23,901 bases of DNA, taken from the NCBI GenBank assembly GCA_963768425.1, contig CAVYHV010000002.1, forward strand, positions 1-23,901. The letters run 5' to 3'. Every line of letters begins with the position of its first letter. Position 1 is the stretch's first letter. A model generated the notes under the pieces. The model was not told the origin of the DNA, ran no database searches, and saw only the letters and a list, made by a program, of their open reading frames with translations. Source of the stretch: Candidatus Bathyarchaeota archaeon. Lineage in GTDB: Archaea > Thermoproteota > Bathyarchaeia > Bathyarchaeales > Bathycorpusculaceae. This document shows positions 1,583 to 5,211 of this stretch, in pieces. The position numbers were made by a program, and so were the translations under genes.

Positions 1583-1623
1583 TTTTTACTGTAAATTGGT
1601 ACAGTATCCCTCCCCCGGCGCCA
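1583..1623 (+). repeat. Dispersed repeat copy R1: conserved motif fused to tRNA-Ser-like 3' end (att-like site)
   Basis: TTTTTACTGTAAATTGGTACAGT + AT-CCCTC-CCCCGGC-G-CCA. The tail has exact T-stem(5)/acceptor(7)/discriminator G/CCA geometry; similar to 4235, 5170 and 21621. Confidence 0.8.
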
Positions 1624-1711
1624 TTCAGGGCATGTTGAAGTTATTACGACAAAATATGCTCAAAAGAACCCTTGTCGTTTAACGGGTATGCTGTCCGCTA
1701 AACCTTCTTTT

Positions 1712-1729
1712 AAACAAAAAAAGGGGAAA
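1712..1729 (-). terminator. Putative pyrimidine/U-rich archaeal terminator downstream of katG
   Basis: Minus strand TTTCCCCTTTTTTTGTTT about 100 nt after the katG stop; a similar tract follows the beta-propeller gene. Confidence 0.4.
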
Positions 1730-1827
1730 CCCGGGTGAAGTCTCCACTTTATTGAGGACGCAAATTCGGACTCGAACTGATTTTGGGCTGATGGCTTACC
1801 ATTTGGTCATCGCTAGTCTATCATGTG

Positions 1828-4002
1828 CTACGACCAAGCGAGGTCGAAGCGGTCAAGGTTCATTACCTTGTTCCACGCTGCCACGAAATCATGCACGAAT
1901 TTCTGCGTGGAGTCCTCACATCCGTAGACTTCCGCCAATGCCCGGAGTTGGGAGTTCGAACCAAAGATGAGGTCGACACGGGTACCGGTCCACTTGAGTT
2001 CGCCTGTTGTGCGATCATGACCCTCGAACACGTCTTCGTCTTTTGAGGTTGCCTTCCATGTCGTGCTCATGTCGAGCAGATTGACGAAGAAGTCGTTGCT
2101 AAGCGTCCCTGGCTGCTTGGTGAAGACACCATGCTGGGACCACCCGAAGTTGGCATTTAAGACGCGCATACCGCCAACGAGAACAGTCATCTCAGGAGCC
2201 GTCAGCGTCAACAGTTGCGCACGATCAACGAGCAGTTCCTCTGCATACACCGCGTATTTGGTTTTGAGATAGTTACGGAACCCGTCTGCAACCGGTTCGA
2301 GTACGGCGAATGACTCAACATCGGTTTGCTCTTGCAACGCATCTGTGCGTCCCGGCTTGAAGGGAACGGTTATCTCGTAACCGGCATTCTTCGCAGCCTT
2401 CTCGACACCTGTGCATCCACCCAAAACAATCAAGTCGGCGAGCGAAACCATCTTCCCGCCTGACTGCGCGCTGTTGAACTCCTTTTGGATTCCCTCAAGG
2501 CTATGCAGCACCTTCTTCAGTTGAGCCGGTTGGTTAACTTCCCAATCCTTTTGCGGCGCAAGATGGATACGAGCCCCGTTCGCACCACCGCGCCTGTCAG
2601 AGCCACGAAACGTGGACGCCGAAGCCCAAGCGGTTGAAACCAGTTCCGAGATCGACAGACCAGACGCAAAAATTTTGCCCTTGAGGCCTGCGATGTCCTG
2701 CTCCTCAATCAGCTCATAATCGACTGCCGGTATTGGATCTTGCCAGATCAGTTCCTCCGCTGGGACTTCCGGACCGAGATAGCGCGAGCGGGGACCCATA
2801 TCGCGGTGGGTAAGCTTGAACCACGCTCGGGCGAAGGCATCTGCTAGCTGATCTGGATTCTCGTAGAAACGCCTTGCAATCTTCTCGTAAACCGGGTCGA
2901 ACCGAAGGGCAAGATCGGTGGTCAGCATGGATGGCGCGTGACGCTTTGATGGGTCATGCGCATCCGGCACGGTATCGGCGCCTGCGCCGCCCTTCGGCTT
3001 CCACTGGTGCGCACCAGCCGGACTCTTAGTCAGTTCCCATTCATAGCCGAACAGGTTCCGCAAAAAGTTGTTGCTCCACTTAGTTGGCGTCTCGGTCCAT
3101 ATAACTTCCAGGCCACTGGTAATCGCGTCATCGCCTTTTCCAGTGCCAAATTTGCTCTTCCAGCCGAGGCCCTGTTCCTCTATGGGGGCAGCTTCAGGCT
3201 CAGGACCCACTAGTGACGCAGCGCCGGCGCCGTGGGTTTTACCGAAGGCGTGGCCGCCCGCGATGAGGGCCACTGTCTCCTCGTCGTTCATCGACATGCG
3301 CGCGAAGACCTCGCGGATATCTTTTGCAGCAGCAAGCGGATCTGGGTTGCCGTTCGGGCCTTCCGGATTGACGTAGATTAGCCCCATCTGCACAGCGGCA
3401 AGCGGATTTTCGAGATCCCTCTCCCCTGAATAGCGTTTGTCACCTAGCCAGGTGGTTTCGGAACCCCAATAGACATCCTCTTGTGGCTCCCAAATGTCCA
3501 CGCGTCCACCGCCGAAACCGAAGGTCTTAAATCCCATTGACTCCAAAGCGCAGTTGCCGGCGAGGATCATCAGGTCGGCCCAGGAGATTTTCTTGCCGTA
3601 TTTCTGCTTGATCGACCAAAGCAAACGGCGCGCCTTGTCCAGGTTGACGTTGTCCGGCCAACTGTTGAGAGGCGCGAAACGCTGCGCGCCACCAGAGACA
3701 CCCCCGCGACCGTCGCCCTTGCGGTATGTGCCGGCGCTATGCCATGCCATCCGGATAAAGAGCCCGCCGTAATGACCGTAATCGGCCGGCCACCAATCTT
3801 TCGAGTCGGTCATTAGCGCATTGAGATCCTTCTTCACAGCTTCCAGGTCGAGTTTCCGGAATTCATCAGCATAGTTGAAATCTTTGCCCATCGGATTCGA
3901 CAAGGGGGAATTCTGGCGCAGAATATTTAGGTTCAACTGGTTCGGCCACCAGTCTTGGTTTGACGTTCCCGTGTGGGCAGTAAGCGTCTTTTTATCATTC
4001 AA
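1828..4002 (-). CDS. katG: Catalase-peroxidase
   Basis: [11 protein letters not shown] distal motif, [20 protein letters not shown] proximal His, C-terminal [14 protein letters not shown] start preceded by AAGGAG. Confidence 0.99.
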
Positions 4003-4234
4003 AATAAAACAACTCCTTCCTGTTTATCTTGATTGAAGTGGGACTAATTTAAAGTTTAGGATATACTAATTTGAGCAAATACGAGATTGCACAAGAGAAA
4101 TCGAAGCTTATTGTTAAGCAAACTTGGATTCAGAAAATTGAATCAAAAATAACTCGCACCTAAAAACCATGGATTTGCGGGTAACGTTCACGAAATAGGA
4201 GGCTCAATTCTCGTCCCCAGCTTTGACAAAAGTC

Positions 4235-4275
4235 TTTTACTGTTAAATTAGAGCCTGTGTCCCCTTCCCGCACCA
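4235..4275 (+). repeat. Dispersed repeat copy R2 (degenerate) with tRNA-Leu-like 3' tail
   Basis: TTTTACTGTTAAATTAGAGCCTGT + GTCCCCTTCCCGC-A-CCA; aligns with R1/R3 over about 40 nt. Confidence 0.65.
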
Positions 4276-4475
4276 TTTTTGAAGCTATAATCGATGGCAT
4301 TAAGAGCAAATAAGCGTGATTTTGAATCATTTGTCAATGATTTTGAAATAAGTGCAAGAATTCTTATCGGAGCTTCCTTTAACACAGTTTGTCTGGTCGT
4401 GATTGCCTAACCAGCAATTATCATTAGATTTCGGCAGTGGCTAGAATGAACTCTACGAAAGAATCGTTATTTTCA

Positions 4476-5072
4476 TCAGGGATATGAACTAATGTTGCTT
4501 TTTCTCGAGTTATCTAAAGCAACTTTAGTCTGCACTATCATTTTTCCCAAGTGCCTCGCAGAATCTATGCCCTCCTGGTCTTTGGCAACGTCTCCCTTCT
4601 CTCTTCCAATAGAGAACGCTCGTCCGCCGCTTGGGATAGCTATTCCTACAGCAGTTAAGAATGTGATCATCTGGCCACAAGTGTTCGAAACGCCTGACCG
4701 ACGAGCAACAGCTATTACGCCGCCCACCTTCTCCGTAAAGTCTTTTCTTCCTCTAGCCAACGCGAGAAAACCTATCCTATCGATAAAAATCTTCATTTGA
4801 GCGGTGACCCCTTGAAAATACGACGGACTACCCAACAGTATCCCGTCAGCCTCCATTATGATCTTGTAAAGTTTTTCACCGTCATCGTCTATAACACATT
4901 TCTTAGCGCTAAAGCAGCCCATGCAACCGTTGCAGGGCTGAATACGATAATCAGAAATTCGAATCAGCTTTACTTCTGCGCCCTCCGCTTTCGCAGCCGC
5001 CAAAGCTTCCTGCAAAATCATGTCTGTGTTGCCGCCGACTCTAGGACTTCCACTTAGCCCAATTATAAGCAC
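4476..5072 (-). CDS. Iron-sulfur flavoprotein (Isf)-like NADPH-dependent FMN reductase / flavodoxin family protein
   Basis: N-terminal GSPRxGGNT FMN-binding loop, Cx2Cx2Cx5C (CNGCMGCFSAKKC), GSPSYF, K.FIDR; GTG start after GAGG. Confidence 0.92.
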   Translation of the reverse strand: MLIIGLSGSPRVGGNTDMILQEALAAAKAEGAEVKLIRISDYRIQPCNGCMGCFSAKKCVIDDDGEKLYKIIMEADGILLGSPSYFQGVTAQMKIFIDRIGFLALARGRKDFTEKVGGVIAVARRSGVSNTCGQMITFLTAVGIAIPSGGRAFSIGREKGDVAKDQEGIDSARHLGKMIVQTKVALDNSRKSNISSYP

Positions 5073-5169
5073 TTTTTACAACCTCAAAAGCTCACTCTTC
5101 AAACCAATTGATTAACAATTTGGTCTGAGCTCCACGTCTTTCTGGCTGTCCACTTATTTCAATAACAAA

Positions 5170-5211
5170 TTTTACTGGTAAATTGGTGCTAGTATCCCCC
5201 TCCCAGCGCTA
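5170..5211 (+). repeat. Dispersed repeat copy R3 with degenerate tRNA-Ser-like 3' tail
   Basis: TTTTACTGGTAAATTGGTGCTAGT + AT-CCCCC-TCCCAGC-G-CTA; shares a 22-nt identical core (CTGGTAAATTGGTGCTAGTATC) with the reverse complement of 21635-21656. Confidence 0.85.

Follow-up and report, generated by a model that had tools for sequence, protein, structure and literature searches.

The 23,901-nt stretch of DNA analysed here (hereafter the window; contig CAVYHV010000002.1 of assembly GCA_963768425.1, Candidatus Bathyarchaeota archaeon) contains four copies, denoted R1 to R4, of a short repeat in which a conserved arm is fused to the 3′ end of a tRNA-Ser gene. We propose, with moderate confidence, that these copies are the junction sites of an accretion island that is anchored at a tRNA-Ser gene and grew by serial site-specific insertion, its units probably having been inserted in trans. 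Each junction reads as an element-side arm, followed by the displaced tRNA 3′ end and then by the start of the next, older unit, and the repeats would mark a hotspot of gene swapping, i.e., the seams between small accessory units behind tRNA-Ser genes in peat-soil archaea. The first-pass annotation of the window had already suggested serial att-like scars, a suggestion that is now supported by further copies, by co-oriented arrays headed by tRNA-Ser and by matching tails.

The window lies on contig C2 of its source genome (G000), a metagenome bin that is 91% complete with 4.75% contamination; C6 and C27 are further contigs of the same bin. The start of C6 and C27 duplicate window positions 1–6150 and 21600–23430 at ~99%, in reverse, with C6:756–6149 being 99% identical to window positions 1–5400. 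In the C6 version, katG and the histidine kinase gene are each broken into two open reading frames, and the duplicates are probably strain variants or unresolved assembly overlap. The other genomes denoted by G-numbers are the relatives compared, which are not independent samples; pairs were tallied and loci matched manually on the basis of search tables.

The sequence-only covariance model was built from 11 repeat copies and was used to score relatives at E values up to 0.01, whereas the nhmmer E values are those of whole-genome searches with a four-copy profile and range over the four window copies from 1e-06 to 5e-10. Both methods recover the three co-oriented intergenic elements of the first-pass annotation (R1, R2 and R3), with one large gene in each interval, antisense to the repeats. 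The features concerned are:

16–1479, minus strand: PAS/PAS histidine kinase (Pfam PAS_9, HisKA, HATPase_c)
1581–1624, plus strand: R1, junction repeat (model 31.4 bits, E ~1e-7; nhmmer E 1e-06)
1625–1660, plus strand: weak, degenerate copy of the downstream block, GTTGAAGTTATTACGAC, after R1 (family profile, by reading)
1828–4002, minus strand: katG, catalase-peroxidase (PF00141, E 9e-72)
4232–4277, plus strand: R2, junction repeat (model 31.2 bits; nhmmer E 3.1e-07)
4476–5072, minus strand: flavoprotein of the NADPH-dependent FMN reductase family (PF03358, E 7e-31)
5167–5211, plus strand: R3, junction repeat (model 43.5 bits, E 6.5e-11; nhmmer E 5.3e-10)
21622–21664, minus strand: R4, inverted fourth copy (model 34.8 bits; also found by nhmmer)

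R1 consists of the arm TTTTTACTGTAAATTGG, a degenerate T-arm and a tRNA-Ser 3′ tail ending in GGCGCCA. R2, the most degenerate of the four copies, is followed by a weak downstream block, TTTTTGAAGCTATAATCG, and R3 is the top-scoring copy in the whole genome. R4, located 16.4 kb from R3, recurs on C27, which is near-identical in this stretch. With as many as three mismatches allowed, a 29-nt pattern has 2 matches in the window compared with 0 in 100 shuffles. The catalase-peroxidase gene is the only gene in the R1–R2 interval, and the flavoprotein gene is the only one between R2 and R3, in a unit of 0.9 kb. The histidine kinase belongs, as cargo, to the unit terminating at R1, the other end of which lies to the left of the window.

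The repeat and its tRNA-Ser tails

A typical copy comprises a sharply bounded arm, TTTTACTGGTAAATTGG, with the palindrome TTTACNNGTAAA, followed by the last 17–27 nt of tRNA-Ser and often by a block in which a GAGCTTATTTT-like half-repeat occurs twice. In the profile compiled from 98 distinct copies and their flanks, the 5′ edge is sharp, the core, TTTTTACTGGTAAATTGGgGCTaGnATCCCCctCCCGGCGCCAtTTt, is strongly conserved, and a weaker second block (TtTTGAg...TTATTTT) lies ~22–45 nt past the tail. The palindrome is present in the arm of 82 of the 109 distinct copies, and a T-arm-like helix (GGGG-N7-CCCC) is broken at one pair in 43 of 108. Compensatory change was sought in both candidate helices and amounted to a single double change among 964 cells, a result matched by 475 of 500 shuffles; thus, the palindrome and the T-arm-like helix are conserved as sequence rather than as a fold.

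The first-pass annotation proposed a model scan of this genome and of related Bathyarchaeia for further intergenic copies, and such copies were found in both. In G000, nhmmer identifies 15 sites at E < 0.05, four of which are near-identical duplicates on C6/C27, so that ~11 independent loci remain. Of 40 genus relatives, 21 contain the repeat according to the covariance model. An exact 27-nt IUPAC pattern, run on 185,579 species represented by one genome each, has 58 matches, 55 of them in metagenome-assembled genomes labelled Bathyarchaeota or Bathyarchaeia and 3 in bins labelled otherwise, against ~0.03 matches expected by chance according to our own estimate. The same pattern has no match in viral contigs, where no free element was seen. 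The window repeats have no match in Rfam and no 5′ acceptor strand upstream of them.

The derivation of the tails follows from the tRNA gene that heads the array. The window itself contains no tRNA gene (ARAGORN; Rfam tRNA model, E up to 10). On C6, an intron-bearing tRNA-Ser(GGA) gene (G000:C6:11217–11330, minus strand; ARAGORN; Rfam 39.7 bits) lies at a place corresponding to ~5 kb to the left of window position 1, in the same orientation as the copies, which follow it at C6 positions 8016, 4525 (R1), 1874 (R2) and 943 (R3). The 3′ end of this tRNA gene reads ATCCCCCTCCCGGCGCCA, and the tails of R1, R2 and R3 read ATCCCTCCCCCGGCGCCA, GTCCCCTTCCCGCACCA and ATCCCCCTCCCAGCGCTA. In agreement with the first-pass annotation, which regarded the tails as tRNA-derived, they thus match a tRNA of the host itself. 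The tRNA gene ends in ...GGGGGTTCAAATCCCCCTCCCGGCGCCA and the copy nearest to it in ATCCCCCCCTCCCGGCGCCA, with the farther copies being more decayed.

The same correspondence holds for all three isoacceptors met (GGA, CGA and TGA), the tails matching the T-stem and acceptor of the respective head tRNA. In GGA arrays (G000, G016, G013 and G032), the tails read CCCCC and then TCCCGGCG; in CGA arrays (G041, G038 and G049), they read GGGGTTCGAATCCCTT and then CCCCGGCG, and the copies hold the whole T-arm and acceptor strand of tRNA-Ser(CGA), GGGGTTCGAATCCCTTCCCCGGCGCC. In the single TGA case (G000:C10), the copy lies 1 kb downstream of the tRNA gene and its tail is identical to it at 17 of 17 positions, including the CCCAT that is private to this tRNA. 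Nothing in these tRNA-Ser genes corresponds to the arm, TTTTACTGGTAAATT.

Several observations concern sequences that adjoin copies. A repeat of ~120–130 nt located directly after R3 (window positions 5267–5400) recurs at 85–96% identity in G000 (C17:37998–38121, C10:101749–101868 and C28:13321–13448) and in the relatives G047 (4 places), G043 and G016; on G000:C10, a junction repeat, here a weak copy (101656–101694, E 0.002), lies ~55 nt before it, as at R3. Just upstream of the copy on C15 of G000 (C15:41330–41430, locus L007), there are two tandem GGTTCAAATCACACTAACACGTTC units and a third piece resembling a T-arm plus acceptor, which together are a stack of 3′-end fragments from another tRNA. 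In one subfamily of copies (L005, L006, L018, L023, L028 and others), a scrap similar to the 3′ end of tRNA-Val (..CCCGGTCCGACTCA) is found 10–25 nt upstream, a similarity that reaches 176 nt at 70% in G000:C19 and C14; a second subfamily has an antisense T-arm-like sequence, GGGATTTGAACCC, ~45 nt upstream. Between R3 and R4, the window contains a dense signalling block (8190–17571; Pfam) that encodes a TrmB-family regulator, a stand-alone receiver, a PAP2 protein and two large multi-PAS histidine kinases, one of which is a hybrid with a receiver domain.

Arrays, cargo and occupied sites

Of 38 pairs of neighbouring copies up to 15 kb apart, 34 have both members in the same orientation, a tally that excludes the duplicate contig C6; in a second set of loci, which has some places in common with the first, the same is true of 19 of 20 pairs. 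Nine relatives and G000, among 22 repeat-bearing genomes, have a copy in the orientation of tRNA-Ser(GGA) no more than 10 kb downstream of it. The locus can be recognized by the conserved genes for an FKBP isomerase and EgsA upstream of tRNA-Ser(GGA), and the cargo behind it is wholly different in four species, the copies thus delimiting variable gene content, a point that the first-pass annotation proposed to check:

G000: PIN pair and beta-propeller protein; amidohydrolase and histidine kinase; katG; flavoprotein
G016: a histidine kinase, followed by unrelated genes
G013: two units, one with a PIN gene; ends at tRNA-Pro
G032: two other small units

The kinase copy in G016, which is 91% identical to that of the window, lies directly between tRNA-Ser(GGA) and the first repeat. 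Homologues of the flavoprotein (83–85%) are located 8–9 kb behind tRNA-Ser(GGA) in G052 and G040.

Comparison of G016 with G000 yields an occupied and an unoccupied version of the same site. The flank right behind the tRNA gene in G016 (TTTTACCAGTTGGAGC..TTTTGAGCTTATTTTGTCTAAAAT) is homologous to the flank behind the first copy of G000, and therefore G000 carries an additional unit, of 3.1 kb, inserted precisely where the tRNA gene stops and the older flank starts. The arm borders this unit on one side and a downstream block of its own on the other, which is the expected product of recombination between a circle carrying arm, tail and block and the 3′ end of the tRNA gene. At the tRNA-Ser(TGA) locus, the corresponding interval is 390–420 bp in G004 and G016 compared with 1435 bp in G000, the difference of ~1 kb being accounted for by a vapBC pair and a copy in G000; this is an empty site by size only because the intergenic letters are unalignable at 70–79% identity.

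The units are mostly small. Among the co-oriented gaps, 12 of 32 measure 0.84–1.12 kb (some places being counted twice), and six short units carry PIN genes or PIN genes together with MazE/AbrB-type antitoxin genes; other short units encode the flavoprotein, an ArsR-like regulator or DnaJ. Given that VapBC-type toxin-antitoxin pairs are the commonest small cargo, the notion of the first-pass annotation that stress genes in particular are captured does not hold.

The katG gene appears to have moved between species. Its DNA is 86–93% identical to that of copies found at unrelated places in many members of the genus, whereas the flanking core genes are only 66–84% identical across the genus, suggesting recent transfer. 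A unit comprising a repeat copy and katG, with a homologous spacer, is common to G000 and G035, where it is found in different surroundings. G000 itself encodes a second katG (C14:37892–40219; 90% DNA identity), 2.9 kb from a repeat copy at C14:34978.

The arrangement seen in the window recurs in environmental data. In four public soil or peat runs (Logan contigs compared with window positions 1–6000), the order kinase, R1, katG, R2, flavoprotein, R3 is found at ~90–99% identity, and single contigs span R1 (X1, 773–1864), R2 (X1, 3946–4668) and R3 (X3, X4). At two joints, the spacer is replaced by other letters (1565 to 1825 at R1 in X3 and X4; 4073 to 4363 at R2 in X3).

Recombinases and competing explanations

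We envisage that a circular DNA carrying a site of ~95 bp, composed of the arm with its palindrome, a mimic of the tRNA-Ser 3′ end and the two half-repeats, would recombine with the 3′ end of a tRNA-Ser gene. The exchange would take place at, or just 5′ of, the 3′ strand of the T-stem, such that the incoming DNA would supply a new tRNA 3′ end and the old end, along with all earlier units, would be pushed downstream; katG and the flavoprotein gene would therefore have been inserted earlier than the units closer to the tRNA. Most units, many of them of ~1 kb, would have arrived without a recombinase, a tyrosine integrase probably acting in trans, and the larger elements that occupy tRNA-Ser(CGA) in relatives are a candidate source of this enzyme.

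As the first-pass annotation observed, no integrase is visible in the window: PF00589 has no match on C2 or in C6:1–11217, which covers the array and its stretch up to the head tRNA, and no tyrosine recombinase was found next to the tRNA-Ser(GGA) heads of G000, G016, G013 and G032. The array units lack a tyrosine recombinase and a replication module of their own. At 5 of 58 loci, a C-terminal integrase fragment is convergent to the copy, with its stop codon 20–190 nt from the tail. Intact PF00589 tyrosine integrases adjoin the true tRNA-Ser(CGA) in G013 and G039, in the position that the fragments have beside copies, and come after the flank CAACATACTTTTGGACAAA; the G039 enzyme (424 aa) lies wholly beside the tRNA and is adjoined by a 594-aa protein without any Pfam match. 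More than 50 of 80 relatives have tRNA-Ser(CGA) without that integrase. In G041, it is a repeat copy, and not the tRNA, that precedes the flank CAACATACTTTTGGACAAA and a broken integrase; the tRNA is located three units upstream, the outcome expected from later insertions at it. These are not self-splitting integrases of the SSV type because the att site is outside the integrase frame. Two integrases (299–300 aa) are encoded on C30 of G000. A further integrase of G000 (453 aa; C14:260427–261314) is encoded beside a tRNA-Leu(UAA)-like gene (C14:260234–260345) with an interrupted D-arm region, of which the Rfam model detects only the 3′ part (22.8 bits).

The link to a tyrosine recombinase, a check proposed in the first-pass annotation, holds in so far as integrases are found at the same tRNA-Ser ends, but the presence of an integrase does not track that of the repeat. 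The integrase family is represented in 36 of 41 genomes, and being nearly universal in the genus, it does not separate repeat-bearing from repeat-free genomes. The integrase query has 10 matches in G003, a repeat-free genome, and none in the repeat-bearing G012; G039 has no repeat copy at E 0.01. These discrepancies weigh against serial insertion at tRNA-Ser, as do several other observations. No element with an intact integrase was found to end in the arm motif, although the G013 and G039 contigs end before the far end of the integrase-bearing element, and no second copy of the tRNA end was found within 19 kb of the integrase in G011, G055 and G062. The T-loop of GGA-type copies reads CTAGTAT compared with TTCAAAT in the tRNA, so that these data do not pin down the crossover point. 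Ser-tailed copies are in some cases located near other tRNA genes (Asp, Arg, Phe, Thr) or near none, 4 of the 38 neighbouring pairs are opposite in orientation, and R4 is inverted. The link between the window and the head tRNA is a ~6-kb contig overlap at 99% in a metagenome bin. Finally, the Logan contigs of the four runs contain no excised circle, empty junction or repeat-to-repeat joint; because contigs drop rare forms, they neither support nor oppose excision.

The alternative that survives best, which we nevertheless consider unlikely, is that the units are stumps of complete, integrase-encoding elements (plasmids or viruses) that integrated at tRNA-Ser and from which deletions later removed integrase and backbone, in which case no small cassettes move. 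The broken integrases beside copies are what such stumps would leave, and intact elements with an integrase and further genes exist at tRNA-Ser(CGA). Integrase loss after integration and tandem integration are known in archaea, according to a review (PMC8371274), and the accessible part of the report on tycheposon islands describes fragmented integrases and partial tRNAs (bioRxiv 10.1101/2020.12.28.424599). The deletions would have had to spare both ends repeatedly, however, given that units of 0.84–1.1 kb keep the full arm and often the downstream block. The flank of the integrase elements, CAACATACTTTTGGACAAA, differs from the start block of most units, TTTTGAGCTTATTTTG, and an integrase remnant would not fit into the 3.1-kb unit nearest to the tRNA in G000. 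Because the units keep both site ends and their start block differs from the integrase-element flank, we favour recombinase-free units, and it is likely that they move in trans as integrase-less cassettes.

An improbable but conceivable scenario dispenses with a site-specific enzyme altogether: the copies would be former att scars that now serve as portable homology, the units being exchanged by homologous recombination after DNA uptake. Such exchange is suggested by the high conservation of the 45-nt core across genomes and by the katG unit common to G000 and G035, and homologous recombination between tandem elements has been invoked in the same review (PMC8371274). The core is short, however, copies within one array differ by 10–30%, and homologous exchange explains neither the sharp 5′ edge of the arm nor the dependence of the tails on the isoacceptor that heads the array.

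It is very improbable that the motif is a regulatory or RNA element of its neighbours, i.e., an operator (for example, a palindromic one of the oxidative stress response), promoter, terminator or small tRNA-like RNA: the conserved palindrome fits this explanation, R1, R3 and R4 precede minus-sense start codons by 104, 98 and 94 nt and 11 of 33 antisense 5′ neighbours start 86–107 nt away, but neighbours point either way (on the 5′ side, 59 have the orientation of the repeat and 33 the opposite one, compared with 36 and 54 on the 3′ side), Rfam match and compensatory change are both lacking, and the tRNA-specific tails, arrays and empty sites would be left unexplained. The spacing of ~100 nt to start codons may reflect where units end.

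Other candidates were rejected. R1 alone fits CTGT-N8-ACAG, which we take to be the LexA-type box, and the other copies do not. A protein-coding motif was ruled out by eye because indels break every frame. A split, permuted or intron-bearing tRNA-Ser(GCU) was ruled out as well, there being no 5′ half upstream and many copies per genome; this tRNA was not found in G000 by ARAGORN or the Rfam tRNA model and may simply be missing, given that the bin is 91% complete. An insertion sequence end was considered in view of IS1182-like transposases near copies, the distance and orientation of which vary, so that we regard them as incidental. An IS1182/IS5-like transposase gene or fragment (DUF772 and DDE_Tnp_1_6) is found beside copies at G000:C13:24918–25020 (L003), G000:C19 (L005) and G041:C1 (L050), with ~110 nt of upstream sequence in common to two of these three loci.

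Relation to known systems

Bathyarchaeia are among the most abundant uncultured archaea of sediments and peat, and to our knowledge, almost nothing is known of gene exchange in this group. The layout described here is that of a tRNA-anchored accretion island, a broadly known kind, in a group for which it had not been described before; the archaeal systems returned by a literature search were viruses and classical integrons, and none was a tRNA-anchored cassette array of Bathyarchaeia. For practical purposes, the repeat provides a simple handle, either as the 27-nt pattern or as the 50-position model, on a flexible gene pool that includes the katG copies, which are 86–93% identical between species with core genes that are 20–30% apart.

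Like tRNA-targeting integrative islands in general, the array has an intact head tRNA, here tRNA-Ser(GGA), co-oriented copies of the tRNA end and presence or absence of units at the copies; in those islands, the integrase is inside the island next to the tRNA, which is not the case in the G000 array. Islander-type islands are alike in the regenerated tRNA and the displaced co-oriented 3′ fragment at their ends, as far as the accessible part of their description goes (PMC4383910).

A close analogy is with the tycheposon islands of Prochlorococcus, which, in the part of the report that could be consulted, insert at tRNA genes, with newcomers pushing older units inward (bioRxiv 10.1101/2020.12.28.424599). 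By the same partial account, these islands also resemble the arrays in the partial tRNAs between units, the fragmented integrases, the niche-adaptive cargo and the inward-facing integrase next to the tRNA end, and differ in being bacterial and in having their own lineage of tyrosine recombinases, replication genes and bodies of 10–20 kb. The arrays of Bathyarchaeia, in contrast, have an archaeal host, mostly recombinase-free units of 0.8–5 kb and one conserved arm at every junction.

The archaeal cases of tandem integration and integrase loss on record, in the review cited above, are whole viruses or plasmids (PMC8371274), not rows of one-gene units with a common junction motif; its text contains neither Bathyarchaeota nor tRNA-Ser (0 occurrences each). 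Accretion of cassettes at tRNA genes is also represented by the additive flexible genomic islands of Alteromonas. We know of no common junction motif for these islands. They are bacterial, and strain-variable cassettes accumulate in them at a tRNA-linked spot, according to the portion of the source available (PMC4898812).

The first-pass annotation likened the array to an integron, and this likeness extends to the rows of small units; the sites are not integron attC sites, and movement in trans is our inference. Integrons and CALINs (clusters of attC sites lacking integrases), including the archaeal ones, are similar in their small single-gene or toxin-antitoxin units, a recombination-site-like repeat and the usual lack of a nearby recombinase, judging from the part of the report that was accessible (bioRxiv 10.1101/2022.02.06.479319), the text of which mentions neither tRNA nor Bathyarchaeota. 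The attC site is a conserved hairpin, whereas the repeat of Bathyarchaeia has no conserved hairpin and contains a tRNA 3′ end. Integrons insert their cassettes at attI beside intI, in one orientation and under a common promoter, whereas the arrays are located at a tRNA gene and their cargo genes point both ways. We hypothesize, tentatively and giving the idea somewhat less than an even chance, that Bathyarchaeia possess their own integron-like route of gene capture, in which recombinase-free cassettes of 0.8–5 kb, possibly excisable and equipped with a ~95-bp site, would enter any of several tRNA-Ser genes with the help of a tyrosine integrase that would be encoded at another place in the cell or by a helper element with the same target tRNA. 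If the small units do move in trans, they would represent a second, independent route to the integron-like lifestyle, with a tRNA end in place of attI and attC.

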